32,000 bases of DNA. Origin: Geobacter metallireducens GS-15. Lineage in GTDB: Bacteria; Desulfobacterota; Desulfuromonadia; Geobacterales; Geobacteraceae. The position numbers and the translations under genes are program-made. The stretch spans positions 3,000,001 to 3,032,000 of the forward strand of contig NC_007517.1 of the NCBI RefSeq assembly GCF_000012925.1. The letters run 5' to 3'. Of the stretch, positions 1-16,491 are shown piece by piece. Under the pieces are notes generated by a model, which saw only the letters and a program-made list of their open reading frames with translations, had not been told where the DNA came from and did no database searches. Every line of letters begins with the position of its first letter. The first letter of the stretch is position 1.

Positions 1-647
1 AGCACGACTACCGGCCCCTGCGTCTTGGTGTCGCGGGTCATCCGGCTGTACATGCGCTCAGAGGACCCTCTGGACATTGTGTCGGTAATGTTGTTGGCTT
101 CGATGGCCTTGAAAAGATCTTCCAGTTTGTTGCCCGCAAGCGGCTTGCCGCCAACGCCAACTATTTGGTGTCCCTTCCTCAGTCCGGTTTTTTCGATGCC
201 GGCCCCCGGCAGGACCTGGAGCACCCAGATGCCGTCGGCCATGGCGGCAAAGGTGACCCCCGGCAGCCCCACCTTCCGCTTCAGGGCGATCAGCTCCTTC
301 ATCCGCGCCATTTCCGCCTCGACCGCGCCCCGGTCGGCCGCGTCCGGTTTCAGGGCCAGATAGGCGCGATACTCCTTGATGGCCTTGGCCGGTTTGTCCG
401 ACTCGGCGGCCAGCTGCGCCAGGTTGTAGTGGCTGTCGGGCCACGTGGGGGCCAGGGCGGCGGCCGCCTCGAACTCGGCCAGGGCGGCCAGGAAATCAGC
501 CGATTTGTCCGCCTTCTCGATCAGGGCCAGCCCCGCTTTAAAGCGCTCCTTGGCCGCGGCGGGAATCTCCTCCTGGGCCAAGGCCGGCAAAGCGGCCAGC
601 AGGCAGAGAACCGACATAATGACGAGCTGTGGCAGGGTTTTTTTCAT
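1..647 (-). CDS. Exported TPR-like + PDZ-like protein, N-terminal ~215 codons only (3' end lies beyond position 1); paralog of the 1831..2943 product
   Basis: Absent from the ORF track because its stop is outside the window. Manual minus-strand translation from ATG 647..645 stays open to the window edge: MKKTLPQLVIMSVLCLLAALPALAQEEIPAAAKERFKAGLALIEKADKSADF...RKVGLPGVTFAAMADGIWVLQVLPGAGIEKTGLRKGHQIVGVGGKPL... It has a signal peptide. By manual alignment, roughly three quarters of the first ~140 residues are identical to the 1831..2943 product. The RBS context is the same (GAAAGGATCA-N-ATG). Confidence 0.75.
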   Translation of the reverse strand, partial: MKKTLPQLVIMSVLCLLAALPALAQEEIPAAAKERFKAGLALIEKADKSADFLAALAEFEAAAALAPTWPDSHYNLAQLAAESDKPAKAIKEYRAYLALKPDAADRGAVEAEMARMKELIALKRKVGLPGVTFAAMADGIWVLQVLPGAGIEKTGLRKGHQIVGVGGKPLAGNKLEDLFKAIEANNITDTMSRGSSERMYSRMTRDTKTQGPVVV

Positions 648-690
648 GGTTTGATCCTTTCGCGGCCCAGTGGGCGGGACATCTCCGGTT

Positions 691-1818
691 TCAATCGCTG
701 TTACCGTCATTTTTGTGCATCTGCAGCGGGGTAACGACAAAGTACGGGGAGTTGTAATAATCGGCCGGACTTAAATCGATGCCGTGCTCGACCTTGGCCC
801 GGTCAGAGGATTTCGGAAGGAACTTCCCGGCATTTTTAAGCAACGCCCAGTCGGCCTCCGAACAGACCACCTCATCCTTGCCCACCACGCCGTAGTTCGT
901 ATCCCCCCACCAGCTGTTTGCTGTTTTATCGGCGTTTTTCTTGTGCATCTCCATCGCCGCCCGGAAAAGGCCTTCCCCTTCATCGTTCCGCAGCGGTTCA
1001 GCCAGCTTCCCCAGCGTTGCCACGTCCATGCCGCGGTGCCCGTACCTGTTTTGGAAATCAATTTCCGTGATAATGCGCGGCCCCTCGCCCGGCTGGTTGT
1101 CCAGGAAGAGCTTGGTGCCGTTGACCTCCTTCAGATAGATGACCGTATGGGAGGCGAATGATTTGTTCCCCCCGGTGGCGGCGTTGTCCCCCAGGGTGAT
1201 GGGGTTCACCCCCTTCAGGCGACCATCCTCCGGCTCGATAAGGAGCACGTCGCCCGACTGGAGCTGGCTGAAGGTTTTTCCCGGCAACGGCGGCACGTTC
1301 GCCATGAGGGAGCGCTGGATTGCGCCGGCGGTTTTGTTGGGCTCCTGGAGCCTCTGCTGGATAAGCTGCTGCTGTTTCTTCTCCCATGTGGCGTATTGTG
1401 TCTCGAACTCCACCTGCTCCCGTATCGCCTCGATATTCTTGTCGCCGCTTTTCGCCAGGGACAGGGTCCGTTCCAGGCGCCGCAGCACCAGTTCGGCATC
1501 ACTCTTGTTCTTCAGGCTGCGGGACTGCGACGCCTTTGCCTCAGCCAATGCCTTGCCGGCAACCGCTTCGGCCTGGGCGTTCCCCTTCTGTCGGGCGAGT
1601 CCGATAATGGTCTCCGATTTGCTGATCGAGGCGGCGCTCTTCTTGATCGCGTCATCGAATTTCCTGATTTCTGCGACGATCTTTTCCTTCGCGGTTTCAA
1701 GCTTGAAGATCTCGCCGAGCAGTGCGTTGCGGTCCGCGTCGGTCATCCGGGCGTGGGAGACGGAAACAGAGACAAACAAAACAACTACCATGGCTGAACT
1801 GACAAAGAATCGTCCCAT
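691..1818 (-). CDS. Membrane-anchored/exported coiled-coil protein with a C-terminal domain resembling permuted papain-like amidases (YiiX/C92, NlpC/P60 superfamily)
   Basis: 375-aa ORF with RBS AAGGGGA 7 nt upstream. It has an N-terminal hydrophobic anchor (FFVSSAMVVVLFVSVSV) and a ~170-aa heptad-like charged region. The C-terminal motifs appear in the permuted order GDVLLIE ... ASHTVIYL ... VVCSEADW, which matches the GD / SH(T/V)G / YCSE(V)VW order I recall from E. coli YiiX. The domain call is tentative. Confidence 0.7.
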   Translation of the reverse strand: MGRFFVSSAMVVVLFVSVSVSHARMTDADRNALLGEIFKLETAKEKIVAEIRKFDDAIKKSAASISKSETIIGLARQKGNAQAEAVAGKALAEAKASQSRSLKNKSDAELVLRRLERTLSLAKSGDKNIEAIREQVEFETQYATWEKKQQQLIQQRLQEPNKTAGAIQRSLMANVPPLPGKTFSQLQSGDVLLIEPEDGRLKGVNPITLGDNAATGGNKSFASHTVIYLKEVNGTKLFLDNQPGEGPRIITEIDFQNRYGHRGMDVATLGKLAEPLRNDEGEGLFRAAMEMHKKNADKTANSWWGDTNYGVVGKDEVVCSEADWALLKNAGKFLPKSSDRAKVEHGIDLSPADYYNSPYFVVTPLQMHKNDGNSD

Positions 1819-1830
1819 CGGGTTTTCCCC

Positions 1831-2943
1831 TTAATTGGCGGCTACGCCCTGCAAAAGCTCCGCGAGCTTCGCATTGTCGATCCTGCCGGTCGTGGTGGAA
1901 ACGGGACTTCCCCCCTTGTAGACCATCATGGCCGGAACCCCTTTGATAGCCAGCTGGCCGGCGAGCTTCCGGTTCTCATTCACGTTGACATTGACGAACT
2001 TGACCTTGCCGGCATACCTGGCGCTTTGCGCCTCCACGGCCGGGACGAAATCCTGGCAGGGGCCGCAGTCGCTCCCCCAGAAGGTCACCACCACTGGCAG
2101 TCGCTCCTTGATGACTTCATCCTCGAACTCGTCCTCTTCGATCTCGATCACGCTGGAGCGGAACATGCTCTGCTTAAAGAACAGCTTGCCGGTGTCAGTG
2201 GAACCGGGAGAGATGACGGTAAACGCGATGGCCGGCCCCGTTTCCTCCACCGCGTTGCCGGCGGCGTTTGGCTGGGTCGTCCGCATGAACTTCTGGGAGC
2301 GGATGAAGCCCATCTCCGACCTGAATCCGGCCGGTATCTGCCCCGGCTGTTTCTTTTCCTCGCTCTTGGCCGCGGCTACCTTGGCGGACTGGGTCTCAAT
2401 GGCCCGGAAAAACCCGTCCAGCTTTGCTCCCACAACCGATTCACCCTCGACGGCAAGGATCTTGTACCCTTTCCTCAAGAGGGTTTTCCCCACCCTTGAC
2501 CCGGGAGCAAGCTCCATGACCCAGATGCCGTCCGGCATGGCGGCAAAGACGACACCGGGCAGGCCGAGCTTCCGTTTCCGGGCGATCATCTCCTTCATCC
2601 GCGCAATATCCCCTTCCACCGCGGCCCGGTCCGCCGCCTCGGGGGCCAGCGCCAGGTAGGCACGGTACTCATTGATGGCCTTGGCCGGTTTGTCCGTTTC
2701 CGCCGCCACCTTTGCCAGGTTGTAGTGGATGTCGGGCCAGCGGGGAGCAAGGGCGGCGGCCGCCTCGAACTCGTCCATGGCGGCACGGAAACCGGCAGGG
2801 CTGTCCGCCTTTTCGATGATGGCGAAGCCGGCCTTGAAGCGCTCCCGAGCCGCCTCGGGAATTTCCTCCTGGGCCAGGAGAGGCGAAACGGTCAGCAGGG
2901 CGAACAGTGACGTGATGACGAGTTGGCGTATGGCTTTTTTCAT
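1831..2943 (-). CDS. Exported TPR-like / PDZ-like / thioredoxin (CGPC) fusion protein
   Basis: 370-aa ORF with signal peptide MKKAIRQLVITSLFALLTVSPLLAQ. It has a TPR-like helical N-terminus and a PDZ-like segment (GIWVMELAPGSRVGKTLLRKGYKILAVEG). The C-terminus aligns clearly to TrxA: VVVTFWGSDCGPCQDFVPAVE...YAGKVKFVNVNVNEN...IKGVPAMMVYKGG. Its ATG overlaps the stop of the upstream gene (ATGA at 2940-2943). Confidence 0.9.
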   Translation of the reverse strand: MKKAIRQLVITSLFALLTVSPLLAQEEIPEAARERFKAGFAIIEKADSPAGFRAAMDEFEAAAALAPRWPDIHYNLAKVAAETDKPAKAINEYRAYLALAPEAADRAAVEGDIARMKEMIARKRKLGLPGVVFAAMPDGIWVMELAPGSRVGKTLLRKGYKILAVEGESVVGAKLDGFFRAIETQSAKVAAAKSEEKKQPGQIPAGFRSEMGFIRSQKFMRTTQPNAAGNAVEETGPAIAFTVISPGSTDTGKLFFKQSMFRSSVIEIEEDEFEDEVIKERLPVVVTFWGSDCGPCQDFVPAVEAQSARYAGKVKFVNVNVNENRKLAGQLAIKGVPAMMVYKGGSPVSTTTGRIDNAKLAELLQGVAAN

Positions 2944-4001
2944 GGCTGTGATCCTTTCGTGGTCTGGCCGGCTTTCGGCGCCGTGGCCAGCTTGCCCACT
3001 TCGTTCAGGGCGTCGATCTCAAGTTCCAGTTTCTTGACTCCGGCATCGGCCTCGTTCTTGAGGGTGGTGGCCGTATCCAGCTCCTTCAGGGCCTGCGCCA
3101 GGAGATCGTCGGCAACCTCCTTTTCCGCTGGGGGGAGAGTCGTTGCCTGGCTCTTCAGTTCTTCGACCTTTTTCTGTTTTTCGGCCACCTGCTCGGTGGC
3201 GTTCCGCTGTTTTTCCTTTGCCTGCTCGATCATGGGGAGGCGCAGATGCACCTCCTCGATCATGGTCTGATAGAGGCCCATGCGGACTTCAACCGCACCA
3301 TCCGGCATGGGAGGCTCCGGGAACTCCTTGTCGCACCTGGCCATGGACTCCCCGGTGGGTTTCTCAGAAAACTTCCGGTATTCCTCCGCCCGTTTTTCGT
3401 CGCCGGCCGCCAGGGCCCTGGCCACCTGGCCTCCCCAGTAGGCGCTGCACCGCAACTGCCGGAAGGCATGAGAATCACGGCCGGGAGAGCTTGCGTCCAG
3501 CCCCCGTATCCCGGCCAGGAGCTTCTTCTTTTTGTCGGTGAACTCCTGTTTCTTCTGCTGTTCGTACTGGCTCTCCATCTCCCTGATCTGCTGCTCCACC
3601 TTGGCGCGCCATTCGGCCGCGGCCCGTTCCTGGGCCGCTTTCTGTTCGGCGATCTGCTGGGGGGTCGGGCCGGACTGCTGCGACGGAGAAGGGCCATTGA
3701 GCCAGTTGATGAACGCGTTGGCGGCCATGTCGGTTATGGACTGCATGATCTGCAGTTTCATCTGGTTCTTGAAGGAAAGCCCGCTCTTCGGCGACGACCC
3801 GTAGGAGCCGCCGCCGGAGGGCTGATCGCACTCAATGCGCCCTCCCCGGCAGTAACAAGGGATCCCCTGGTCCGCATAAGCCCTGGCCGAGGCCTTGCAG
3901 TCCACCTCGAAACCGGCAAGGGCGGTTTGCGGCCCTGCCGCGGCAGACAGCAACAGCAGGACGACAGGGGTAAGTCGCAGCAATGATCCCAACCGTAACA
4001 T
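2940..4001 (-). CDS. Exported protein with an N-terminal 4-Cys motif, Gly/Ser linker and long Q/E/K/R-rich coiled coil; function unknown
   Basis: 353-aa ORF with a perfect RBS (AAGGAGG) upstream of ATG 4001. Signal peptide is ...LLLLSAAAGPQTALA, followed by FEVDCKASARAYADQGIPCYCRGGRIECDQPSGGGSYG. The charged helical repeats include EQKAAQERAAAEWRAKVEQQIREMESQYEQQKKQE. Confidence 0.8.
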   Translation of the reverse strand: MLRLGSLLRLTPVVLLLLSAAAGPQTALAGFEVDCKASARAYADQGIPCYCRGGRIECDQPSGGGSYGSSPKSGLSFKNQMKLQIMQSITDMAANAFINWLNGPSPSQQSGPTPQQIAEQKAAQERAAAEWRAKVEQQIREMESQYEQQKKQEFTDKKKKLLAGIRGLDASSPGRDSHAFRQLRCSAYWGGQVARALAAGDEKRAEEYRKFSEKPTGESMARCDKEFPEPPMPDGAVEVRMGLYQTMIEEVHLRLPMIEQAKEKQRNATEQVAEKQKKVEELKSQATTLPPAEKEVADDLLAQALKELDTATTLKNEADAGVKKLELEIDALNEVGKLATAPKAGQTTKGSQP

Positions 4002-4012
4002 GATTGACCTCC

Positions 4013-4279
4013 TTACGAGATGGAGCCGGGCTGCCGGCTTGTGGCGTATGCCTCCCAGAGCCGGCTCGGGTCCGCCGCATAGAGTTCCGCATAGCCGCAG
4101 TCACCGCAGATATGGGCATGCAACTCCATGGTTTCAGCCTTCTTGAAGATGAGCGCCCCCGGTTTCCTCTCGATCTGCACAGAAAGGGTGCCGTTCGCAT
4201 ACTCACCGTCGCGGTCGATGACCCGGACATCGTGCATGATCTTGCCGGAGCCGCATTTGGGACATTTTTCGCGTTTCAT
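4013..4279 (-). CDS. Small zinc-ribbon protein (CPKC ... CGDC), no signal peptide
   Basis: 88-aa ORF with RBS GGGAGA. There are two CxxC pairs, at residues ~6-9 and ~58-61 (MKREKCPKCGSGK...HAHICGDCGYAEL). Confidence 0.7.
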   Translation of the reverse strand: MKREKCPKCGSGKIMHDVRVIDRDGEYANGTLSVQIERKPGALIFKKAETMELHAHICGDCGYAELYAADPSRLWEAYATSRQPGSIS

Positions 4280-4298
4280 GGCCGTTCTCCCTGCCGGG

Positions 4299-4643: not shown

Positions 4644-4694
4644 GGTTCTCCTCCAGCCATTCAGCTGTGCGTATCAGGTTCATCCCGGCTGAAA

Positions 4695-7600
4695 CTACTT
4701 CCCTCCGCCCGCCGCAATGTCCTTGAGCCTCGTCCGCACCTCATCGGAAACGGCCTCATCGGGGTGCGCGGCCAGCCAGCGGGACAGGTTCATCTCCGCG
4801 TATCCCCAATGATCCTTGTATTCATACTCCACCAGACCACAGGTAAGCTGCAGGTCCGGCAGCCGCATCGGCTCGTCGCGCAGGAAGGTCACCCGCACCG
4901 GCATCCCCGGAGTCAGCCGGGCAACGGCAGTTAAAACCTCGTCCACATCCTTCATTCTCTGGGTGTCAAACGCCAGGATGATATCGCCGGCCTTCACCCC
5001 GGCACGCTCGGCGGGGCTTCCCGGCGCAACCGCCTGGACGTAGGCGCCCCCCTCGGCCCTTTTCAGCAGCTTCAGCCCCATCTGCGGCTTCCCCTGCCCC
5101 CCTGCCTGGGGTGGCGACATTTCGGGCACGATATCCACCTGGGCGGGGCGGTAGCCGGCCTCGGACAGCTTGAATGCCTGCACACAGTGCTTATGGACTT
5201 CATATCCCATGTCGTATTGATTCCTTGCCCTGGCCACCAGCTCCCGGACCCTCCCCAGATGGGTGCCGAGGGCCAGCTCCCGTATCGCCGGGTCCTTTGA
5301 ATCGGTGGCCGCCTCCAGGGCCGCATCGTCCTGCTCAAGGGTCCTGATCATGTCCACCGTCCCGAAGAACGACGGCCCCTCGCCAAGGAACATGAGCCGA
5401 CCCTCTCCCGCGCCGATTGAGGCGGTTTCATCCATCTGCTTTATGTAGTCATCCTTCGGGATATCGAAGTATGCCGACGTCGTCAGCTTCTTCCCCGGCC
5501 TGAGGGCGGCCCCCTTCTGCAGCAGCAGGCGCACCATGCGCCGCTGCGCAATCTTGGCCTTGGGGTCCGAACGTTCGTTGAGGGTGTTCAAGGCCACATA
5601 GATCGCGGAGCGTGTCGGGCGGTTCGGCTGCCTCTGGGCCACGGCGGTCGAAGCCCCCTTCTCCAGGAGGAGCTGCATGCATTTTTCCCGACCGGAGAAG
5701 ATGGCGCTGCCAAGAGGGGTGTACTGTCCAATCGAATCAGTCTCGTTCAGGTCTGCCCCTCGCTGGAGGAGAAGCGACAGGATTTCATCTGTGCAGATGC
5801 TGTCGCTCATTTCACTGAGGAGGCTCTGCTTGCCATAACTCATTTCATACCGGAAGTCGGCCCCGTTCTTCAGCAGAAACGCGGCAAAGTCGGCTGAATA
5901 GCTGGACACCAGCGGCGGGCCGCCAGGGAACCGCCGGACGTTGACGTTGGCGCCGCGACGCACCAGCAGTTCGGCCTTGGTCCGCCAGTCGCCAACGTAT
6001 TCGACCATGGTCAGCGGCGATTTCCCCTCCCTGTCGACTGCGTTGGGATTGGCACCCCGCTCCAGAAGCAATTGCACCGCCCGGGCGGAACCGAACTGCA
6101 CGGCTGTGGAAAGGAGCGGTTCGCCGCTCTCGGAGGTGGTGTTGGGATTGAGCCCCTGATCCAGCAGGGCAGTAAGGGTAGCCATGTCATCGTAGCTAAT
6201 GGCTTGCCAGGGGTCCGGCTGTCCGGCAAGCGTGAAGGACCACTCCCCGGCGGGGATGCCATCCACCTCTACCCGCATTCGATAGCGGCCGGGATAGCGG
6301 TTCCCGAGTTCATCGGTAAACCTGTAGTGCACCCCGCCGATCTTCCAGTGGGGAGGAGAGTAACCATTCTCTGTTTTTCCGCCGATGGCGGCAAAGAGCG
6401 GGTCATCGGAACCCTGTGTCACCTGGTAGTTGGCGCTTTTCAGCATGCCGCCGGTCGGCTCATGCCAGGAGACCGTAACCGAATGCCCCCCACGGCTTCG
6501 GGAAAGAGAGGCCTGATCGAATTCGATCCGGGCCACGATGCGCCGCACATCCTTGCGGTCGAAGCTTTCGGCGAATCCCCGGGTATTGTCGAGAGTATCG
6601 CTCTCATAGAAGCTGACGCCGGCAATGGCACAGGGAGGCGCCGCCTCGCCAGGGGCCACGGGCCTCACCGCCAGGTTGAAGCGCCTGAGGTCCGCCAGGT
6701 TGTCGAGGGCCAGCACCCCCAGGGAGGTATTGAACAGCACGTAGAGGGTATCGCCAGCCATGGCCATCCGGTGCCCATACCCCGCCGAGCGCATGATCTC
6801 CAGGGCTCCGCCCTGGCCGGCGAGGACGATCTCCCTGCCGGTGCTGACCACAAGGCCGGCCGGCGTCATGGCCAGCCCCGTCACGGATGCCGAGGGGTGG
6901 GTGTAGTAGGTGCTCTCAGCGCCGTCCTTCACGGAATAGCGGGCGACCGTTCGCCCCTTGGCCACGTAGAGGGCTTCAGCATCGCCCGTAACGGCGGTGA
7001 TGGGCTCGCCCGACTCATAGGCCAGCTCCATGTCGAGGATGCCGCCCCCCTTGAGGGAGCGGAGCAGGTAGAGAGCATGGCGACCACTTCGCGCGTCGAT
7101 GCCGGCACAGTAGACGGTTGTGCCGACGCTGGTCAGGACATCGATTTTGCGCAGGGGTACTTTCGTCACGGGCTGCAGCGCCGCATAGGGTACCCCCTTC
7201 TTGTCCAGGGTTTTCTCCCTGGGCTCGGCGAGGAGCAGCAGATCATTGCCGGCCGACAGGAGGAACACGCCGTTGGAGAGGTGGGTCATCCCTGAGATCG
7301 CGGCTTTCACGGCCACCATGAAGTTTCTGTCGGGGTAGAGCAGGTGGTATGTATCAGAATCACCGCTGAACGCCACAACGGGGGCACCTGCGGCACTGAC
7401 GCTGAAGATGGCGTCGGTTCTGGTCTTTTCCGTGGGGGGGAGCACCCATCGGGGGGCAACCTTAGCCCCCCTGAGGAACAGGAAGGTGGCCTCCGTGAAG
7501 AGGCTGGGCGCGGGCTGCCGCTCCACCGACGGCTTGGGTGCCTGAGGCGTCGGCGGCTTGGGTGCCTGCTGCGACGGTTTGGACACCTGCTGCTTGGGCG

Positions 7601-7706
7601 GCCTGGAGGCAGCCAGCCCCGGCATGCCCAGGAGCAGAGCTAAAATCTGTACCGCTGTTGCCAGCAACGCGGCTTTCCGCCTGATCATTCGCCGAACTGG
7701 ATCCAC
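4695..7706 (-). CDS. Large exported multidomain protein: Pro/Gln-rich linker, beta-rich N-terminal region, ~6-7 ankyrin repeats, C-terminal PDZ domain
   Basis: 1003-aa ORF. The GTG at 7706 is preceded by AAGGGGG. The alternative ATG at 7688 forms an ATGA overlap with the upstream stop. Signal peptide is MIRRKAALLATAVQILALLLGMPGLAAS, followed by the linker PKQQVSKPSQQAPKPPTPQAPKP. ANK repeats include GEPLLSTAVQFGSARAVQLLLERGANPNAVDREGKSPL. The PDZ segment is GAYVQAVAPGSPAERAGVKAGDIILAFD. Confidence 0.9.
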   Translation of the reverse strand: MDPVRRMIRRKAALLATAVQILALLLGMPGLAASRPPKQQVSKPSQQAPKPPTPQAPKPSVERQPAPSLFTEATFLFLRGAKVAPRWVLPPTEKTRTDAIFSVSAAGAPVVAFSGDSDTYHLLYPDRNFMVAVKAAISGMTHLSNGVFLLSAGNDLLLLAEPREKTLDKKGVPYAALQPVTKVPLRKIDVLTSVGTTVYCAGIDARSGRHALYLLRSLKGGGILDMELAYESGEPITAVTGDAEALYVAKGRTVARYSVKDGAESTYYTHPSASVTGLAMTPAGLVVSTGREIVLAGQGGALEIMRSAGYGHRMAMAGDTLYVLFNTSLGVLALDNLADLRRFNLAVRPVAPGEAAPPCAIAGVSFYESDTLDNTRGFAESFDRKDVRRIVARIEFDQASLSRSRGGHSVTVSWHEPTGGMLKSANYQVTQGSDDPLFAAIGGKTENGYSPPHWKIGGVHYRFTDELGNRYPGRYRMRVEVDGIPAGEWSFTLAGQPDPWQAISYDDMATLTALLDQGLNPNTTSESGEPLLSTAVQFGSARAVQLLLERGANPNAVDREGKSPLTMVEYVGDWRTKAELLVRRGANVNVRRFPGGPPLVSSYSADFAAFLLKNGADFRYEMSYGKQSLLSEMSDSICTDEILSLLLQRGADLNETDSIGQYTPLGSAIFSGREKCMQLLLEKGASTAVAQRQPNRPTRSAIYVALNTLNERSDPKAKIAQRRMVRLLLQKGAALRPGKKLTTSAYFDIPKDDYIKQMDETASIGAGEGRLMFLGEGPSFFGTVDMIRTLEQDDAALEAATDSKDPAIRELALGTHLGRVRELVARARNQYDMGYEVHKHCVQAFKLSEAGYRPAQVDIVPEMSPPQAGGQGKPQMGLKLLKRAEGGAYVQAVAPGSPAERAGVKAGDIILAFDTQRMKDVDEVLTAVARLTPGMPVRVTFLRDEPMRLPDLQLTCGLVEYEYKDHWGYAEMNLSRWLAAHPDEAVSDEVRTRLKDIAAGGGK

Positions 7707-9103
7707 GCCTTCACCCCCTTCCGTGATGCGGACAGCTCATCGTTGAAACGCTTCCAGAACCCCTCGGCATCGAAACTGGTGCCGGTCGCGGCCGTCGCAT
7801 CCACCATGAACCGGTTGAGGGCTTGGTAGGCGACCTTCGAATACATCCGCCCCCCCTCCACGGCAAACTCCGCATGGGGCCCCACCGGCTCGGGTATCTT
7901 GGAAATAATCAGATCCGCCGTCTCGGCGCCGGCCGCGGGAGCGCCCCCCTCCCCGGCTTTGACCGCGATGCGCCCCACAGCGAGCATCTTTTCGTAGTAC
8001 CCCTTGAATTTCTCGCCCCGGGCCTCTTCGATGGCGTCGCCGGTCTCCGACTCGATAATCTTCGTGATCTTGTCGGTGAAAAAATCAGCCGCAAACGCCG
8101 TAGTGATGGGATCATCGGGCTGGGACTTCGAATCCGCGGCAGAGGCGAGCCGGCGGTCCGGAGATTTGATGGTCCGCGCCGCATTGGCAGCCGAACTGTC
8201 CTGCTGGAACATCCCCATGACGGAGTTCAGGAGGGTCTTGCTCACCACCCGGGGAAGCGGCAGGCGGAGGCTGTCCCGCTCTTCGTCGGAACGGGGCTGC
8301 CCGGCGGCCATGGCCCACAGCTCGTTGCGCCGGCGCAGTGCCGCATAGAAGGCCTCCGCATCGGCGTCGGAGAGCACCCCATCCTTATTGAGCCTGGCGT
8401 AGAGCACGGCTACCGTTTCCTGTGCCGCCAGATATTCCTGCCATTGCTGCGGGGAAAAGCCGGGGAGTGGGACCACCGGCCGCGGGGCCTGGACCGTCTT
8501 GCTCAGGGGTTTCGCAGCGGGCATGAGCGCAACCAGCTTTCCCATCCGCTGGCGGTACTCTGAGCGCTCCTTCCGCAACTCTTCCTGTCGTTTCAGCTCC
8601 TGCTCGGCGCGGCGCAGGTTTTCCTGGATCACCTTGTCGTTGGGGGACTTGCCCACGGCATTCTTATAAAGCTCCACCGCCTTTGCCCAATCACTCTTCT
8701 CATAGGCCCGGTTCCCCTGCTCATTGAGGTTGAAGGCTTCCTGCTTCCGCTGCCGCTCCTCCTGCTGCCGTGCCTGCTCCCGCTCCTCCTGCCACTGGTT
8801 GATCCGCTCAAACAGGCTCGGGCCGCGTTCGTAACCGCTGTTTCCGCCGTCATCGCCGCCGGAGCCTCCGCACCCGCTGACACACTCCGGGCCGCTAACC
8901 GGCGGGATATACACTGACCCTCCGCCGGTCATGGACCGGAGCTGATCGAAGGCGCCGGCTGACGCCTCCGCAGTGAACGCGGCAGCGGCGCAGAACTGGC
9001 AGGCCGCCAGGAACAGAAGCCCCCGCCCCCTGAGGGTCTTAACTTTAATAAACCTCGTGCCCATAGTCATGGGAGGGCCCCCTCTCCGTGTCTCTCGATT
9101 CAT
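7685..9103 (-). CDS. Exported coiled-coil / TPR-like protein of unknown function
   Basis: 472-aa ORF. The better-supported start may be ATG 9070 (MTMGTRF...), which is preceded by GGAGAGGGGG. Signal peptide is ...LLFLAACQFCAAAAFTAEASA. It is followed by the Cys/Gly motif GPECVSGCGGSGGDDGGNSG and a charged coiled coil (QWQEEREQARQQEERQRKQEA). There is one TPR-like unit (NEQGNRAYEKSDWAKAVELYKNAV). Confidence 0.8.
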   Translation of the reverse strand: MNRETRRGGPPMTMGTRFIKVKTLRGRGLLFLAACQFCAAAAFTAEASAGAFDQLRSMTGGGSVYIPPVSGPECVSGCGGSGGDDGGNSGYERGPSLFERINQWQEEREQARQQEERQRKQEAFNLNEQGNRAYEKSDWAKAVELYKNAVGKSPNDKVIQENLRRAEQELKRQEELRKERSEYRQRMGKLVALMPAAKPLSKTVQAPRPVVPLPGFSPQQWQEYLAAQETVAVLYARLNKDGVLSDADAEAFYAALRRRNELWAMAAGQPRSDEERDSLRLPLPRVVSKTLLNSVMGMFQQDSSAANAARTIKSPDRRLASAADSKSQPDDPITTAFAADFFTDKITKIIESETGDAIEEARGEKFKGYYEKMLAVGRIAVKAGEGGAPAAGAETADLIISKIPEPVGPHAEFAVEGGRMYSKVAYQALNRFMVDATAATGTSFDAEGFWKRFNDELSASRKGVKAWIQFGE

Positions 9104-9854
9104 AGGTGTACCTGCCGCCCGGGAAGAACCTCTGCGTAACCTTCTCGAAAACAGGGAGGAACTCCCGGAATTTTTCCTCTGGGGCGGTGTAGCGCAGGGC
9201 GAAAAACCCCTGCTTCGCGGGGAGCACCACGAACCGCTCCCTGATGGGTATCCTTGTGGCGTTCAAGCCCGGCCGGATATACACACCAGGCTTTACGGGT
9301 CCGCCCGTCCCGCTTTCCCTCGGCGCGTACTCCTTCTTGACACGCTCGAACACCATTCCATCCCTGCCGGCAACCTTCACGGCCGTGACATCCCCGTAAC
9401 TGCTCCCATCAAGGGACACCCCCAAAGCCGGCTGCGCGAAAACCCTGAGGTAGTGGTCCACGGATTTGTACATCAGGTTCCCTTCCGCGTAGTAGAAGAT
9501 GGAGATAGCGACGGAGGGTTCGCCCGGCTCCGGGGCTTTCAGGTGAAAACCGTAGGTCTTTTTCTCCTCATTGCTCAAGCCGAGGCCGGATCCGTAGTTG
9601 TCGACCCGTGACCACTCCGGCGGGATATCGCAGGAGAAGTAGTCTCCCACCTCCACGGTCACAAACCCGTCGGGGTCGGGAATTCCCGGGATCAGCTCGT
9701 GGGGAACCGAATGCGTTAGCGGCAATGCCGAAGAGGGAAGGGAAGTGCCGGCCTGTGCCGGCCCATCCCACACTGCCAGCGCCGCCAGCAAAACCAAGCA
9801 CGGCAGCAGGGCCCGGGGATTGCACCTTTTCGTCACAACTGTCGATGCCTTCAT
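9045..9854 (-). CDS. Exported protein of unknown function
   Basis: 269-aa ORF. Its ATG overlaps the stop of the upstream ANK gene (ATGA at 9851-9854). Signal peptide is ...LLPCLVLLAALAVWDGPAQA. I recognise no motif with confidence. Confidence 0.75.
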   Translation of the reverse strand: MKASTVVTKRCNPRALLPCLVLLAALAVWDGPAQAGTSLPSSALPLTHSVPHELIPGIPDPDGFVTVEVGDYFSCDIPPEWSRVDNYGSGLGLSNEEKKTYGFHLKAPEPGEPSVAISIFYYAEGNLMYKSVDHYLRVFAQPALGVSLDGSSYGDVTAVKVAGRDGMVFERVKKEYAPRESGTGGPVKPGVYIRPGLNATRIPIRERFVVLPAKQGFFALRYTAPEEKFREFLPVFEKVTQRFFPGGRYTYESRDTERGPSHDYGHEVY

Positions 9855-10714: not shown

Positions 10715-10750
10715 GTCCAGCACCTCCTTTTCGGTCTTACGCTCTGGAAC

Positions 10751-13021: not shown

Positions 13022-14259
13022 GCTGATCCTTCCTTTTCTATGACAGAGACAGGTTCCCATGGAGGGATGCCGTTCATTTCAGCCATCAGCGCCGGCCGGT
13101 GCGCGTGCTTCACCTCGCTGGGGGAGGCGTCGAGGGCCGCCAGAGCCATTTCGTAATTGAGCCGCGCCGCATCGGCGTTACGGTGCAGGCCGTGGATCCG
13201 CGCACTGTTCCAGTAGACAAAGGGGTTGTCCCGGAAGATGCGGGAGGATTCCCCGAAGCTGTCAAGGGCCTCCCGGTACTCCCCCAGATGGAACTGCTTG
13301 AGCCCCCTGGCGAACACCTTGTCCGCCAGGGACTTCAGGAGCGGTTCGGAGAACACCGTCACCGGCCTCCCCTCGTCCCTCGGCAACTCAACGGTTTTAC
13401 CGGCAAGCACGGCCGAGATGATGGCAATGCCGTCCCGGAGGATTTCCCGATAGGCGTCCCCCTGCCGGCCGGCCCCCTCGGGCCGGGCCTTCAGCATGGC
13501 CAGGAGAGCCCCCTGGAACCGGCTCTCTGCCAGACGGGCGGCAACGGCGCGGCATTTTCCGGCATTGGCATCACTCTTCCCCTTGAGGGTGAAAAACTCA
13601 CGGACGATTTCCGCGCTGTACACGGCAAGCCCCATGGTCTCGGCGGCGTCCCGCTGCAGGGCATCGGCAAGGCGCTTCAGCAGCTCCTCCTGCCCGGCCA
13701 TGACGAGTTCATCTTCGAAGGCGGGAATTTCCTGCATCACGAGCCGCTTCCTCAGTTCGGCCATGAACTCGTGCTGTTTCCGGTCGGCCGGCTTTCGCAG
13801 GATCAGCCGCAGGGAGGGCCGGTTATCCTGATAGAGGAAGGATTCATGGTGCATGAGGGCGAACCCGGCCTCGGCAACCAGCTCCCGCAGCAGTTCCAGG
13901 GGGAAGCAGAACCGGTGCTGCATGCCGGCAGTTTCGGCGCCGTAGAGCCATGTCAGGGCGTCCTCCCGGGCTGTCCGGTCTCCGGCCAGGAAAATCTCGA
14001 AGGAGCGCTCCAGATGTGGCGTTTCAAGGCGGAGCGTCCCACTCGGCCGCAGCACCCGGAAACACTCGGCCAGAAAGTACTTCCCCTTGAAAAACCCGAG
14101 GTGTTCCATAAGCTGCGACGCCACGATCTCGTCAACGGAGGCTGTGTCCAGGCACAGGTCATGGGCCTCCATAATGGCGTCGGCGACAGAATCGCCGCTG
14201 ACGTCGATGTTCAGGTGCCCTTTCAGGTAGGTATGGCCGCAGCCGATGTTCAGTTTCAT
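13018..14259 (-). CDS. Class I SAM-dependent methyltransferase fused to a C-terminal TPR-like helical domain (cytoplasmic)
   Basis: 413-aa ORF. The N-terminus MKLNIGCGHTYLKGHLNIDV...VDEIVASQLMEHL...ECFRVLRPSGTLRLETP matches the Methyltransf_11-type pattern (motif I, then the (E/D)HL and RVL(K/R)PGG motifs). The C-terminal helices include YREALDSFGESSRIFRDNPFVYWNSARIH. There is no signal peptide. Confidence 0.85.
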   Translation of the reverse strand: MKLNIGCGHTYLKGHLNIDVSGDSVADAIMEAHDLCLDTASVDEIVASQLMEHLGFFKGKYFLAECFRVLRPSGTLRLETPHLERSFEIFLAGDRTAREDALTWLYGAETAGMQHRFCFPLELLRELVAEAGFALMHHESFLYQDNRPSLRLILRKPADRKQHEFMAELRKRLVMQEIPAFEDELVMAGQEELLKRLADALQRDAAETMGLAVYSAEIVREFFTLKGKSDANAGKCRAVAARLAESRFQGALLAMLKARPEGAGRQGDAYREILRDGIAIISAVLAGKTVELPRDEGRPVTVFSEPLLKSLADKVFARGLKQFHLGEYREALDSFGESSRIFRDNPFVYWNSARIHGLHRNADAARLNYEMALAALDASPSEVKHAHRPALMAEMNGIPPWEPVSVIEKEGSA

Positions 14260-14262
14260 GGT

Positions 14263-15414
14263 CTACCGGTGGCCGAGAAACGAGTCCCTCAGCCTTTTTT
14301 CATTCCCCCGGGCGCCGAGGGTCGCGAGCCTCCTGCGCGCCTTCAACAGGAGCCGGTACCAGGGGTTTCGCAGCTCTCTCTCGAAAATGTGCTGCTCGAT
14401 CCGGTGGAAGCAGTAGGGATCGTTGTGGAATTCCCCGGTCTTCATGAGGGACATCTCGTTGCATCCCCCCTTGCACGTGGCCAAGTGCGGGCATACGCGG
14501 CAGTTCTCCCCGGCGTCGTCGGCGGTAAAGCCCCGCGAATAGGGGAAAGCCCCGGCGCTCCGCCAGAGATCGCGGACCGACGTCTCCCGCACATTGCCGG
14601 CAATGGTGCTGTCGTCCATGGAGAGGCACCCCTTGATGTTGCCGTTGCTCTGGATGCCGATGACCGACACCCCGGCCTGGCACCCCGTCCACTCACCGGT
14701 CAACGAGATGTTGTCCAGCATCAGGGAGTGGTAGCCCATGTCATGGGCGCCGATGACCGGCATCGCGTGAATCGGGTACGCTTTTCGGGTGGAGGCGATG
14801 AAGAGCCCCACGGAATAGAACTCTTCCTCGTCCAGGAGCAACTCCCGGGGGAATCTCCTTCCCTCGGCCCCGGCCACCTGGATCTGCCACGCAACGTTTT
14901 TCCTCAGCAACTGCTCCCGCAGAGCCGTAAGTTCCGTCAGGTTCATCCTGTGGACCGTGGTGATGACGCTCACCGGCAGTCCCGCCTCCCCTGCCGCCCG
15001 GATGAAATCCCAGGTTTCCCGGAAGGCGCCGCTCCGCCCCCGGATATGGTCGTGGATGGCGGGGGTTGCGGCATCGAGGCTCACGGCAACGGCGCGGGGG
15101 TCCAGTTCCCTGAGCCGCGCGAAGATCTCGGGGTCATGAATCGTCCCGTTGGTGATGACGGAGAGCTCCATGCCGAGCTTCCTGATGAGGCCGGCGATCT
15201 GCCAGAAATCCTTCCTCAGGAGCGGCTCGCCCCCCATGAGGGCAACGCCGAGGCAGCCGGCCTCTTTCAGGTCATGACACAGGGCCACGGCCTCGTCGGT
15301 CGTCAGCTCGTCGGTTCTCCTGCTCCCCGCGCTCGACCCGCAGTGGATGCAGTTCAGGTTGCAGGCCAGGGTAAACTCCCAAACCGCGCATTCGAGGGTA
15401 TAGGCGCCGTTCAC
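14263..15414 (-). CDS. Radical SAM / SPASM-domain enzyme (protein or peptide maturase type), no N-terminal RRE/PqqD domain
   Basis: 383-aa ORF with a GTG start preceded by GGGGTAGG. The radical SAM cluster motif is C18-x3-C22-x2-C25 (ACNLNCIHCG), and a GGEPLL motif is present. The SPASM signature is CQAGVSVIGIQSNGNIKGC (C-x12-G-x4-C) followed by CRVCPHLATCKGGC (C-x2-C-x5-C-x3-C) and a trailing Cys. Confidence 0.92.
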   Translation of the reverse strand: MNGAYTLECAVWEFTLACNLNCIHCGSSAGSRRTDELTTDEAVALCHDLKEAGCLGVALMGGEPLLRKDFWQIAGLIRKLGMELSVITNGTIHDPEIFARLRELDPRAVAVSLDAATPAIHDHIRGRSGAFRETWDFIRAAGEAGLPVSVITTVHRMNLTELTALREQLLRKNVAWQIQVAGAEGRRFPRELLLDEEEFYSVGLFIASTRKAYPIHAMPVIGAHDMGYHSLMLDNISLTGEWTGCQAGVSVIGIQSNGNIKGCLSMDDSTIAGNVRETSVRDLWRSAGAFPYSRGFTADDAGENCRVCPHLATCKGGCNEMSLMKTGEFHNDPYCFHRIEQHIFERELRNPWYRLLLKARRRLATLGARGNEKRLRDSFLGHR

Positions 15415-15426
15415 GACCTACCCCGC

Positions 15427-15894
15427 TCAGCGGGAGAGGTGCCGGAAATCCCGGACGCTCACGGTGTAGTACTTGGTGCCGCAGGGATAACCGGGGAAGG
15501 GACCGCCACAGTCGTCATCGGGAATCACCGGCTCCGCCTGCTGGGCGAGGCACTCCTGTGCGCACTCCTCCCTGGTTTCGAAGGGAACCACGCCTTCGCA
15601 GCCCCCGTAGACGAACTCCTTGCACTCATTGGTCTTCGGGTCAAAATAGTATTTCCAGAACAGGGCCTTGCAGGGACCGCCGTCCGGCTTGAGGCGGCAC
15701 TTCTCCGGCAGCGGCTCCTTGGCCTGGGGTTTTACGTGATCTTGAAGAGGAACCGTGGCATCAGCCTGGGCCGAACCAGTAAAGGCGGAAATGATCAATG
15801 CCATAAGCCCCGACATGCCGATCCTGACGAAGCTCCTGATCTCGCCTTCTCCAAGACCCGCCTTTTTCCCGATTCGAGCAATTTTCCTGTTCAT
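15427..15894 (-). CDS. Exported Kunitz/BPTI-domain protein (predicted trypsin-type serine protease inhibitor, P1 Lys) with a Cys/Asp-containing C-terminal tail
   Basis: The ORF track gives 15427..15918. ATG 15894 (MNRKIARIG...) is preceded by GGGGG 7 nt upstream, so I prefer it. The hydrophobic signal segment ends AFTGSAQA. The domain CRLKPDGGPCKALFWKYYFDPKTNECKEFVYGGCEGVVPFETREECAQEC has Cys spacing 8-15-7-11-3. BPTI has 8-15-7-12-3 ([51 protein letters not shown]). GPCKA and FVYGGC are shared with BPTI. Confidence 0.85.
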   Translation of the reverse strand: MNRKIARIGKKAGLGEGEIRSFVRIGMSGLMALIISAFTGSAQADATVPLQDHVKPQAKEPLPEKCRLKPDGGPCKALFWKYYFDPKTNECKEFVYGGCEGVVPFETREECAQECLAQQAEPVIPDDDCGGPFPGYPCGTKYYTVSVRDFRHLSR

Positions 15895-15986
15895 CTCCAC
15901 ACCCCCGGATTCTGTCATAATTTTCGCCGGCCAAGGTTATATGGTCCTGTATTCCCTATCGGTTCGCGCATTCTTTTCTTGACCGA

Positions 15987-16013
15987 ATTATACGGATTTT
16001 ATCGCTCTGTCAG
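15987..16013 (-). promoter_or_regulatory. Candidate sigma70-type promoter upstream of the Kunitz/rSAM/methyltransferase genes
   Basis: On the minus strand there is a perfect TATAAT at 15992..15987, with CTGACA at 16013..16008. The spacer is only 15 nt, which is suboptimal. The site lies in the 106-130 nt gap between the 16025 stop and the Kunitz start. Confidence 0.3.
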
Positions 16014-16024
16014 TGCTTACGCCG

Positions 16025-16321
16025 CTAATCCTTGAAGAGTAATGTTGCTTTCACGACCTGTTTCCCGTCATGCTCGATTTCGCACACATAGCGCCCCATG
16101 ACGCCGCTGGCCGTGACCAGGGCCTTAGTGGGGGAAGTGCTGTCAAAAAACCGGAAACCGCTTTGCAGCGCCTTCTCTTTCGCAACAGCCAGCAAAGTGC
16201 CGGCAGCCGTTTCGCGGCAGTAGCCGACCAGTTTTTTCTTGGTCCGGTAGCCGTCTGCCACACCGACCAGAAACATCAATATGATAACGGCCAATACCAG
16301 CTTGAAAACTTTCTTCACCAT
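16025..16321 (-). CDS. Small membrane-anchored protein of unknown function
   Basis: The ORF track gives 16025..16327 with a GTG start. The ATG at 16321 follows GGGGGTGG. The N-terminal TM segment is VFKLVLAVIILMFLVGV, followed by a ~70-aa soluble part with 2 Cys. Confidence 0.6.
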   Translation of the reverse strand: MVKKVFKLVLAVIILMFLVGVADGYRTKKKLVGYCRETAAGTLLAVAKEKALQSGFRFFDSTSPTKALVTASGVMGRYVCEIEHDGKQVVKATLLFKD

Positions 16322-16491
16322 ATCCACCCCCGTTGCGGATAACCATGGATTGATCGGATTTTCAAAGACTTTGCAAAAACGGTACCTTTGTCAAATCATC
16401 CCGCCGTGGCAACCAAGTGGATACAGATCACTTCCACCCCCAAAAAGCGCACATACTTGTATGATACGATTTTGTATGATAAACATTTGCC

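Follow-up and report, generated by a model that had tools for sequence, protein, structure and literature searches.

Positions 1 to 16327 of the 32,000-nt stretch of the Geobacter metallireducens GS-15 genome analyzed here (below, the window) are filled by 15 co-oriented open reading frames (ORFs) on the minus strand, referred to as g01 to g15 (Table 1). A preliminary description of this DNA took them for one envelope system. Our analyses support that the heart of the locus is probably a protein maturation cassette resembling those for ribosomally synthesized peptides with post-translational modifications (RiPPs), which would act on the tail of an exported inhibitor, and not a 15-gene machine. 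The conserved unit is a precursor gene together with a gene for a radical S-adenosylmethionine (SAM) enzyme with a SPASM domain, usually joined by a gene for a class I methyltransferase fused to a helical domain, and it occurs in bacteria and archaea. In the window, these three genes are g02, which codes for a Kunitz-type protein, g03, and g04. The preliminary description had the radical SAM/SPASM enzyme and the methyltransferase act in the cytoplasm to mature a product that is then exported, which we judge to be right; it had not seen that the Kunitz protein is the likely substrate.

The g02 protein is annotated as "serine protease inhibitor, Kunitz family," with an annotated start at 15894, and consists, from the N to the C terminus, of a leader, a Sec signal, a linker, a Kunitz domain, and a C-terminal core. 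The protein belongs to the Kunitz family based on its match to Kunitz_BPTI (PF00014; 53 bits against a cut-off of 21), and the six Cys residues have the canonical spacing C-x8-C-x15-C-x7-C-x11-C-x3-C. The reactive loop reads GPC-K-A, and P1 is therefore Lys, as in BPTI. In an AlphaFold2 (AF2) model, the Kunitz region adopts a hairpin-plus-helix fold with predicted local distance difference test (pLDDT) values of 71-85, while the tail is predicted to be unstructured (pLDDT 48-60). Based on the trypsin-type specificity of a P1 Lys, g02 is predicted to inhibit trypsin-like serine proteases.

By aligning g02 with its homologues, we identified two motifs common to all precursors, namely an N-terminal leader, K-[IL]-x-x-[LI]-G-x-K-[TL]-G-L-x3-[ED]-[VI], and a C-terminal core, [RK]-Y-x-[TAG]-[VI]-[SG]-x-x-D-F. 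Residues 1-24 of g02 align with the leader motif of the precursors from Elusimicrobia, Syntrophia, and archaea, and Tyr142, Asp149, and Phe150 in its core are invariant across the alignments. The C-terminal core of g02 is the likely site of modification. In bacterial precursors, the leader motif is followed by a hydrophobic segment, which ends in AQA↓D in Geobacter and, at the same position, in a lipobox Cys in Elusimicrobia, the precursors of which are lipoprotein-like proteins. AQA↓D is the predicted signal peptidase I cleavage site of g02. Inserted between the signal sequence and the core, the Kunitz domain occurs in the precursors of Geobacteraceae, Syntrophia, Nitrospiraceae, and similar lineages only; those of Elusimicrobia and archaea lack it. 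The C-terminal motif of the Geobacter and Elusimicrobia precursors comes after C-G-P-[YF]-P-G-Y-P-C-G, which contains a conserved Cys pair. We note that the Geobacter precursor is a hybrid in that it combines the Kunitz insert of a KYG[AG]VG group with the core and methyltransferase of an [RK]Y[YFH]TVS group.

The archaeal precursors are smaller. In Thermoplasmatota, they are ORFs of 57-85 aa, present in 1-5 copies per locus, in which leader and core flank only ~20 residues, and in some archaeal precursors the core occurs two to three times in tandem or a single ORF holds two leader-core units. Three tandem cores of the form D-[VL]-Y-K-A-G-T-x-Y-G-T-[VI]-S, or two fused leader-core units, were seen in loci L065 (12188-12442), L076 (7397-7651), L062 (11288-11656), and L073 (8415-8795). 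In L085, from a Thorarchaeota genome (11059-11454 and 11548-11961), a transmembrane (TM) segment lies between leader and core, as in bacteria and unlike in the other archaeal precursors. Hidden Markov models (HMMs) built from bacterial sequences only recovered the archaeal precursors: the core HMM gave 23 matches in 14 of 23 archaeal loci (best E = 9e-10), and the leader HMM matched nine small archaeal ORFs in six loci at E < 0.01 (best 6e-5). A conserved leader and core, a variable region between them, and an adjacent maturase gene are what is expected of a RiPP-type precursor, and all were found. By its sequence pattern, the precursor appears to have the architecture of a ribosomally synthesized, post-translationally modified product, extended to a folded exported protein, and we infer that the Kunitz protein is likely the substrate of the radical SAM enzyme.

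The cores vary around the invariant Tyr. Across the family, the residue after it is G, Y, F, H, or N, and all bacterial members have Lys or Arg before it. All archaeal cores found, as well as the Syntrophia-type cores, read X-Y-G. Two precursors (P0252 and P0254) have cores of the form W-x-N-Y-P-A-G-[TA]-K-Y-N-T-[AV]-S-P-x-D-F, with Asn after the Tyr and no Cys pair, and these widen the range of residues tolerated after the Tyr. In a Smithellaceae locus (L015), a second Kunitz domain protein is encoded 2 kb upstream (7503-7874); neither the leader nor the C-terminal core is present in it, which suggests a plain inhibitor paralogue.

A metagenome scan with a profile of the Kunitz-type precursor identified 13 loci, most of them short; a word-indexed search with the precursor returned 41 homologues; and when 1.84 billion representatives were searched exhaustively with a profile, only 48 clusters were returned, all of 53-159 aa. 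Among the 11 sequences from these clusters that were read, which included most of those longer than 120 aa, none had an inserted domain other than Kunitz. The precursor has no matching model in Pfam or NCBIfam.

Orthologues of g03 are found at 45-94% identity across bacteria and archaea. Scanning one genome per GTDB species with a profile of the enzyme, we identified 79 loci. Elusimicrobia account for about 50 of them and Thermoplasmatota and Asgard archaea for about 23, and the other hosts are Geobacteraceae, Nitrospiraceae, Syntrophus, and Smithellaceae. The family ranges over at least six phyla and two domains. To identify what recurs beside the enzyme, we searched all 15 window proteins against the radical SAM loci (n = 87). 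Only the radical SAM enzyme itself, the methyltransferase (69 of 87 loci), and homologues of the Kunitz protein (54 of 87) recurred broadly, and unsupervised clustering of all neighboring ORFs returned the same three families. In this clustering of the fetched loci, no further biosynthetic genes were conserved around the radical SAM gene. For the precursor, we also used an iterated core HMM and counted the non-redundant radical SAM loci (n = 83) with a match within 4.5 kb. At least one precursor was present in 65 of these loci; 99% of the precursors near the radical SAM gene were on the same strand, and the median distance was 916 nt. The two genes are separated by 12 nt in the window, and in L006, L008, L011, and L089 the precursor gene overlaps the start of the radical SAM gene by 11 nt.

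The 15-gene arrangement is far more restricted. The full order was found only in G. metallireducens, G. grbiciae, strains resembling G. hydrogenophilus, and one metagenome-assembled genome (L088; 85% identity in the radical SAM protein). In Geobacteraceae at 71-72% radical SAM identity, only the Kunitz and radical SAM genes, with or without the methyltransferase gene, are retained, and the neighbors are unrelated. Accessory genes are absent within 10 kb of the cassette in these Geobacteraceae loci (L009, L010, and L089) and in L013, L014, and L015, and they are wholly absent from the ~50 Elusimicrobia and ~23 archaeal loci. Thus, the 15 genes are not one conserved system, and their synteny is shared by close Geobacter relatives only.

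The g03 protein matches Radical_SAM (PF04055) with 102.4 bits (cut-off 29.5) and SPASM (PF13186) with 29.7 bits (cut-off 21.5). It has the CX3CX2C motif at C18/C22/C25 and SPASM Cys residues at C245, C263, C305, C308, C314, C318, and C335; all ten cluster Cys residues are invariant in 16 orthologues, in agreement with membership of the radical SAM/SPASM superfamily. Because the protein starts directly with the radical SAM core, it has no N-terminal RiPP recognition element (RRE) domain. The solved structures nearest in sequence are SkfB, PqqE, and SuiB. In all 16 orthologues, the best NCBIfam families were TIGR03913 (GDL-motif peptide maturase) and TIGR04103 (Nif11-class maturase 3), with E values of 1e-57 to 1e-59 and alignments over nearly the full length; the next family was AhbD (1e-45). 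In a Nitrospiraceae locus (L011), a second, longer radical SAM/SPASM-like gene (12901-14268; 455 aa) sits between the Kunitz-radical SAM pair and genes for g07-like, ankyrin repeat (ANK), and tetratricopeptide repeat (TPR) proteins.

These two nearest families bear on the chemistry. We take TIGR04103 to be the same family as IPR026482. The tyramine splicease PlpX is placed in IPR026482 (PMC11002830). Our preferred guess, a tentative one, is a splicease-type excision of a tyramine equivalent from X-Tyr, which would leave an alpha-keto-beta-Lys or alpha-keto-beta-Arg amide as a second warhead against trypsin-type proteases. In its full form, as a sub-case of the maturation cassette, g03 would be a true tyramine splicease that converts Lys141-Tyr142 of g02 to an alpha-keto-beta-lysine amide and makes a two-headed inhibitor. 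Besides the family matches, this form would account for the X-Y-G motif of the archaeal and Syntrophia-type cores and for the Lys or Arg before the Tyr in all bacterial members, which matches the Kunitz P1 Lys. Moreover, ketoamides are protease inhibitor pharmacophores, and spliceases act on proteins, with type II enzymes having no RRE partner (PMC11414181, PMC11626197, PMC9811515). However, the core reads K-Y-Y in the window, R-Y-[YFH] in Elusimicrobia, and K-Y-N in some members; g03 scores 194.7 bits against a cut-off of 591.75 for TIGR03913 and 189.1 bits against 725 for TIGR04103; the methyltransferase has no role in known splicing; and splicing chemistry does not explain the invariant Asp at +7 and Phe at +8. 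The window locus thus neither reaches the TIGR04103 cut-off nor carries X-Tyr-Gly, and we regard a true splicease as rather unlikely.

A Tyr-based cross-link or an epimerization is about equally possible as splicing. In this alternative, which has a real but clearly minority chance of being correct, the radical SAM enzyme would install an intramolecular cross-link or an epimerization in the core, and this would stabilize the tail against proteolysis or make a binding epitope. Candidate products are a Tyr C-C or C-O bond of the cyclophane or ryptide type, a Cys thioether in the CGPxPGYPCG loop, and D-Val or D-Ile as made by YydG. Most characterized SPASM peptide maturases form cross-links, SkfB, PqqE, and SuiB are the relatives of known structure, Tyr, [VI], Asp, and Phe are invariant and at fixed spacing in the core, and the Geobacter and Elusimicrobia cores have the extra Cys pair. 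By contrast, the closest curated match is not to a cross-linking family, and no partner residue for the Tyr is singled out. A sactipeptide or ranthipeptide thioether was rejected as the family-wide chemistry because many cores, those of the archaea and of the Syntrophia type, lack Cys; the best sactisynthase family for g03, StsB, gave 107 bits against a cut-off of 625, and the Geobacter and Elusimicrobia cores have two Cys.

The third gene of the cassette encodes, by fold criteria, a class I SAM-dependent methyltransferase. The g04 protein matches Methyltransf_11 (PF08241) with 22.5 bits against a cut-off of 21.2. In an AF2 model with a pLDDT of 91.5, residues 1-155 form a minimal class I SAM methyltransferase fold without the usual helices between strands 1-2-3, and residues 160-395 form an all-alpha, TPR-like repeat domain. 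A Foldseek search of the PDB with this model returned the SAM methyltransferases 3sm3, 3l8d, and 2p8j (E ~1e-5), and N4, G6, G8, N17, and D19 are invariant in 30 homologues. The gene lies directly downstream of the radical SAM gene in 64-69 loci, typically with a 4-nt overlap. Its presence follows the type of core: it is present in all 33 bacterial loci with an [RK]-Y-[YFH]-T-V-S core, absent from all 13 loci with a K-Y-G-[AG]-V-G core, and present in 10 of the 13 archaeal loci with a detected Y-G core.

Based on these data, we propose the following order of events. The Kunitz protein would be made with a composite N terminus, in which a probably helical leader (residues 1-24) is at the same time the n-region of the Sec signal peptide and is followed by the hydrophobic core and the AQA↓D signal peptidase site. 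In the cytoplasm, the radical SAM/SPASM enzyme would bind the leader directly, without an RRE, and make a radical modification on the unstructured core ...GTK-Y-YTVSVRDF, centered on Tyr142; the co-translated methyltransferase/helical-repeat protein would methylate the same tail. After Sec export, signal peptidase would remove signal and leader in one cut, and the Kunitz domain would fold and oxidize in the periplasm to give a periplasmic inhibitor with a chemically modified tail. With regard to evolution, the precursor may have passed from a free 57-aa peptide, as in archaea, to a lipoprotein, as in Elusimicrobia, and on to a folded, Sec-exported Kunitz inhibitor, as in Geobacter and Syntrophia, with the leader absorbed into the signal peptide and signal peptidase serving as leader protease. 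This scenario, in the strongest version of which a Lys or Arg alpha-ketoamide would give the inhibitor two warheads, is doubtful.

There are precedents for such an order of events. The radical SAM/SPASM enzymes anSME and QhpD modify proteins before periplasmic export. The cytoplasmic anSME modifies a short motif in a full-size protein with a signal peptide before this protein is exported, and the SPASM region of g03 weakly matches an anSME structure (4k36; E = 1e-7). However, anSME reads a C/S-x-P-x-R motif and no leader, it makes formylglycine in an enzyme active site, and the substrates have no sequence relationship. QhpD modifies the small, Cys-containing QhpC, the gamma subunit of quinohemoprotein amine dehydrogenase, in the cytoplasm, and the N-terminal leader is removed afterwards. 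QhpD, however, makes Cys thioethers, while Cys is not conserved in the family described here, and the QhpC leader is cut by a dedicated subtilisin-like protease with a transporter, a role presumably taken by signal peptidase for g02.

The closest likeness is to the spliceotide pathways (PlpX/PlpY/PlpA of type I and RhaX/RhaA of type II), in which a radical SAM/SPASM enzyme is likewise encoded beside precursors with a leader and a Tyr-containing core and for which TIGR04103 and TIGR03913 are the nearest curated families to g03. In type II systems, a separate RRE is also absent, and a leader helix binds the enzyme directly (PMC11414181). Spliceotide products are protease inhibitors, with the ketoamides inhibiting Ser and Cys proteases (PMC11626197, PMC9811515), and X-Y-G is shared with the archaeal and Syntrophia-type cores. 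The systems differ in that g03 scores only 189-195 bits against cut-offs of 725 and 592, that the window core is K-Y-Y, that the precursors bear no relation to Nif11 or NHLP leaders, that the leader would be embedded in a Sec or lipoprotein signal peptide with a folded Kunitz domain inserted, and that there are a methyltransferase partner and archaeal members. A further system, the Bacteroidota radical SAM/SPASM family "with lipoprotein" (TIGR04133), follows the same concept in view of the lipoprotein-like Elusimicrobia members; g03 scores only 126 bits against its cut-off of 425, no precursor similarity was detected, and the TIGR04133 system is itself uncharacterized. As an inhibitor, g02 has a canonical BPTI/Kunitz domain with six Cys residues and the GPCKA loop, and its predicted periplasmic location is that of ecotin, the usual Gram-negative periplasmic serine protease inhibitor. 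We know of no Kunitz protein with a RiPP-type leader and core or with a radical SAM partner. Overall, the cassette appears to resemble the type II spliceotide pathways and, with regard to when modification would take place relative to export, anSME and QhpD.

Several points weigh against a cassette that matures the tail of g02. No precursor was detected in 18 of the 83 non-redundant loci, some of which lie on short contigs and several on contigs of 20 kb. The scores of g03 are far below the curated maturase cut-offs, and transfer of chemistry from the nearest families is therefore weak; the window core, being K-Y-Y, is not of the splicease-type X-Y-G. In Syntrophia and similar lineages, the Kunitz-type loci have no methyltransferase gene, which is thus not essential to the family. 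Recognition of the leader by the radical SAM enzyme and cleavage at AQA↓D are assumed, and it is the genomic context that suggests modification of the tail. Furthermore, the clade of g03 may already be listed in a survey (Scott et al. 2022, Chem), which reportedly covers splicease-like radical SAM enzymes. Finally, the identity of the radical SAM proteins between archaea and bacteria (45-70%) is unusually high and would also be compatible with a conserved role in small-molecule or cofactor metabolism.

If the latter were the case, the substrate of the radical SAM enzyme and the methyltransferase would be a small molecule or cofactor, and the small proteins encoded beside them would be unrelated or would only be carriers or regulators. 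Two further observations fit this idea: the next-best families, AhbD and NirJ, belong to the heme pathway, and not every locus has a detectable precursor. It is nevertheless improbable. The peptides with leader and core are co-oriented with the radical SAM gene and often overlap it, the multi-copy, multi-core archaeal precursors are a signature of ribosomal substrates, and the genes conserved around the enzyme include no others for biosynthesis. A PQQ- or mycofactocin-like cofactor was also considered and is unlikely because the bacterial precursors are exported or lipid anchored.

In searches for earlier descriptions, we found none of this locus in Pfam, NCBIfam, or the literature searched, the coverage of which did not extend to Scott et al. 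2022. The searched literature had no report combining Kunitz, radical SAM, and SPASM and none with TIGR04103 or TIGR03913, and searches for Kunitz with Geobacter, G. metallireducens with ankyrin, and "GDL motif" gave nothing useful. No window product reached an NCBIfam equivalog cut-off, and Pfam and NCBIfam searches of all 15 products gave no pathway-level family. The statement in the preliminary description that no named system has this composition therefore agrees with our searches, including the lack of a model for the precursor.

The gene organization reported in the preliminary description, with 15 consecutive minus-strand genes separated by tiny gaps, was reproduced, including the exact coordinates of the four ATGA start/stop overlaps (13018-13021, 9851-9854, 7685-7688, and 2940-2943); the remaining intergenic gaps are all ≤106 nt. 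The products of g04, g03, g02, g05, and g13 are identical to ABB32881, ABB32882, ABB32883, ABB32880, and ABB32872, respectively, all on one record of 3,997,420 bp. An exact look-up of g14 gave no record, and one of g13 gave only a 3.5-kb contig. Using a crude hydropathy test for export (Kyte-Doolittle, 15-residue mean), we detected an N-terminal hydrophobic segment in 11 of the 15 products, with means of 1.9-3.3, in line with the 11 or 12 exported products counted before. The four products listed as not exported also agree, since g03, g04, and g11 have no hydrophobic segment and g10 has several TM segments. Because g15 is cut by the left window edge, the cluster continues beyond the window. 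Terminator-like sites are not enriched in the cluster (19 against 15.1 ± 3.5 in shuffled sequences), and Rfam and tRNA scans of the window gave no matches.

At the other end of the cluster, the place of g01 in the operon is doubtful: only near-identical strains have the gene, and L088 lacks it. A cTGACA/TATAAT element with a 15-nt spacer lies at 15987-16013 on the minus strand, between the g01 stop (16025) and the Kunitz start (15894); a consensus promoter scan missed it because the spacer is only 15 nt. The operon may start at the Kunitz gene. Beyond the cluster, an ATPase_2/DUF234 protein is encoded divergently at 16492-17928 (+) and a homologue of Zn-dependent phospholipase C at 19862-20821 (+) (PF00882; 81.6 bits), and the rest of the window, from 16.5 to 32 kb, holds ordinary housekeeping and two-component genes.

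Table 1. Genes and features of the g01-g15 cluster (window coordinates)
Feature	Position	Strand	Basis or remark
g01, doubtful first gene, 98 aa, N-terminal TM	16025..16321	-	Membership of the unit unsupported
g02, Kunitz precursor, likely substrate protein, ABB32883, 155 aa	15427..15894	-	Pfam Kunitz_BPTI
Leader-like motif, g02 residues 1-24, MNRKIARIGKKAGLGEGEIRSFVR	15823..15894	-	Alignment with other precursors
h-region and predicted signal peptidase I site, g02 residues 25-44, ...FTGSAQA↓D	15763..15822	-	Sequence, hydropathy
Kunitz/BPTI domain, Cys66-Cys115	15550..15699	-	Pfam, Cys spacing
C-terminal core, g02 residues 129-150, CGGPFPGYPCGTKYYTVSVRDF	15445..15510	-	Invariant alignment columns, core HMM
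g03, radical SAM/SPASM enzyme, putative maturase, ABB32882, 383 aa	14263..15414	-	Pfam, invariant Cys
g04, methyltransferase and helical-repeat domain, ABB32881, 413 aa	13018..14259	-	Pfam, AF2, Foldseek
g05, accessory exported ankyrin protein, ABB32880, 756 aa	10751..13021	-	Pfam
g06, accessory exported ankyrin protein, 287 aa	9851..10714	-	Pfam Ank, 149 bits
g07, accessory exported protein, ABB32878, 269 aa, annotated "lipoprotein"	9045..9854	-	
g08, accessory exported Q/E/K-rich coiled-coil protein, 461 aa	7685..9070	-	Sequence
g09, accessory exported protein, 997 aa, N-terminal region, ANK repeats, C-terminal PDZ	4695..7688	-	Pfam
g10, accessory small multi-TM protein, 114 aa	4299..4643	-	Hydropathy
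g11, accessory cytoplasmic Zn-ribbon protein, 88 aa, two CxxC pairs	4013..4279	-	Weak Pfam match
g12, accessory exported coiled-coil protein, 353 aa	2940..4001	-	Sequence
g13, accessory exported TPR/PDZ-like/CGPC thioredoxin protein, ABB32872, 370 aa	1831..2943	-	Pfam
g14, accessory exported coiled-coil protein with C-terminal domain, 375 aa	691..1818	-	No Pfam match for C-terminal 210 aa
g15, accessory exported TPR-PDZ protein, truncated by window edge	1..647	-	Pfam, paralogy to g13

The domain content of the accessory genes differs in part from that previously proposed. The CGPC thioredoxin (g13; 77.6 bits), Kunitz, radical SAM/SPASM, and methyltransferase assignments all have Pfam matches. 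The count of about 30 ankyrin repeats in three proteins stands with regard to the proteins (g05, 301 bits; g06; and g09, 53 bits for Ank and 57 bits for Ank_2); about 20 repeats were detected singly, and the repeat regions are long enough to make about 30 plausible. Two of the three proposed PDZ segments were found, in g09 (PDZ_2, 52.9 bits) and g15 (27.2 bits); the one in g13 reached only E = 0.14 and is suggested by the paralogy of g15, which is 65.6% identical to g13 over 186 aa with one gene between them. TPR signals are present in g13 and g15 and are weak in g08 and g04, and Zn_ribbon_13 matches g11 below its cut-off (E = 2e-4). Two more tentative domain proposals found no support. The C-terminal non-ANK domain of g05 (~150 aa), proposed to be PrcB_C-like (PF14343), is conserved among orthologues. 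Pfam had no match (E ≤ 10) for it or for three orthologues, and the PDB had none by sequence (E ≤ 1), even with the use of four orthologues. Similarly, the C-terminal 210 aa of g14, proposed to be permuted papain-like, had no Pfam match at E ≤ 10. In the same domain-level Pfam search (E ≤ 10), the N terminus of g09, the C terminus of g08, and g07 had no match either, and g07, g10, and g12 lacked matches in the full-length Pfam and NCBIfam searches. Across these three types of search, no accessory protein matched a known machine.

Some of the accessory proteins recur near distant cassettes. Orthologues of g05, with 40-42% identity over 660-739 aa including the C-terminal domain, lie 8 kb upstream of the Kunitz-radical SAM pair in Syntrophus (L006) and 3.5 kb downstream of it in Syntrophorhabdaceae (L008). 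In L011, an exported ANK protein 48% identical to g06 is encoded 5 kb from the cassette, its gene adjoins that for a g07-like protein (28% identity), and an exported TPR protein is also present. A g07 homologue (33%) lies 8 kb from the radical SAM gene in an Elusimicrobia locus (L018), and L006 encodes two exported TPR proteins that are 33-37% identical to the N-terminal TPR module of g13 and similar to the N terminus of g15. By contrast, g08 and g09 are conserved only in close Geobacter relatives, and for 8 of the 12 accessory genes, homologues were absent from all fetched loci other than those of these relatives.

Other genes were seen near the two cassettes of L006 and L008. In L008, a serpin gene (12530-13741) lies 1.4 kb downstream of the cassette. 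In L006, a gene 2 kb downstream (13105-15474) encodes a VIT-VWA protein, which has the domain pair of inter-alpha-trypsin-inhibitor heavy chains. Both loci encode a 170-aa multi-TM protein directly after the ANK orthologue (L006 2000-2518 and L008 16937-17449; 50% identity) and a small, Cys-rich secreted protein (L006 12372-12785 and L008 17479-17781; 55% identity); neither has a counterpart in the window.

These observations bear on the proposal that all 15 genes form one envelope machine that controls or resists proteolysis, with the radical SAM enzyme and the methyltransferase maturing one component. The tight packing with ATGA overlaps, the 11 products that look exported, and the full gene order in G. 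grbiciae, the G. hydrogenophilus-like strains, and L088 speak for it, as do the exported ANK (40-48% identity), g07-like, and TPR proteins within 10 kb of Kunitz-radical SAM pairs in three lineages and in varied arrangements; the CGPC thioredoxin could also serve the three Kunitz disulfides. The six cassettes without accessory genes within 10 kb, their absence from Elusimicrobia and archaea, the confinement of most of them to close relatives, and the lack of any match to a known machine speak against it. A single 15-gene machine is thus unlikely: of the proposed envelope system, a tight and mostly exported gene set stands, and a conserved 15-gene unit does not. With regard to the suggested co-occurrence of Kunitz, radical SAM, methyltransferase, and ANK genes, the precursor, radical SAM, and methyltransferase genes do recur together, and genes for exported ANK or TPR proteins recur near Kunitz-type cassettes in three other lineages. 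The idea of a scaffold that controls proteolysis is compatible with our data and gains some support from the recurring exported ANK, TPR, and g07-like proteins and the nearby serpin.

We therefore treat the 11-12 remaining genes as a lineage-restricted accessory neighborhood, although not as entirely random neighbors. The accessory proteins plausibly bind, oxidize, or position the inhibitor or its target proteases. It is a matter of speculation that the periplasmic CGPC thioredoxin serves the Kunitz disulfides and that the PDZ domains bind C-terminal tails.

The second explanation offered in the preliminary description, that the ANK, TPR, and Kunitz proteins are "eukaryote-like" proteins directed against protozoan grazers or other eukaryotic hosts, found no support and is very improbable. 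Eukaryotes more often have ANK repeats and Kunitz domains, and there are NCBIfam matches to Legionella Ank effectors, but these arise from the repeats only and are far below the cut-off. The N termini of the ANK proteins are of the Sec type, pointing to the periplasm, the window contains no secretion system or effector delivery signal, and the radical SAM partner of the Kunitz protein is common to free-living archaea without Kunitz or ANK genes. For the same reasons, namely matches through the repeats only and Sec-type N termini, we rejected the ANK proteins as type IV secretion system effectors.

The analysis narrows a 15-gene puzzle to three genes, for which the ANK, TPR, and PDZ proteins are candidate partners, and offers a concrete pair of substrate and enzyme (ABB32883 and ABB32882), together with ABB32881, in a cultivable model organism. 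If the proposed maturation cassette is correct, it would represent an unusual RiPP logic on a folded exported protein, with the leader inside the signal peptide, and would bear on the temporal order of leader-dependent maturation and Sec export. According to reviews, no spliceotide has ever been isolated as a native product (PMC9811515). Were the reaction splicease-like, the locus would offer such a native product, a natural two-warhead inhibitor of trypsin-like proteases, and this would be the first native spliced protein isolable from a cultivable, genetically tractable host. The cassette family, which spans bacteria and archaea, is apparently undescribed.

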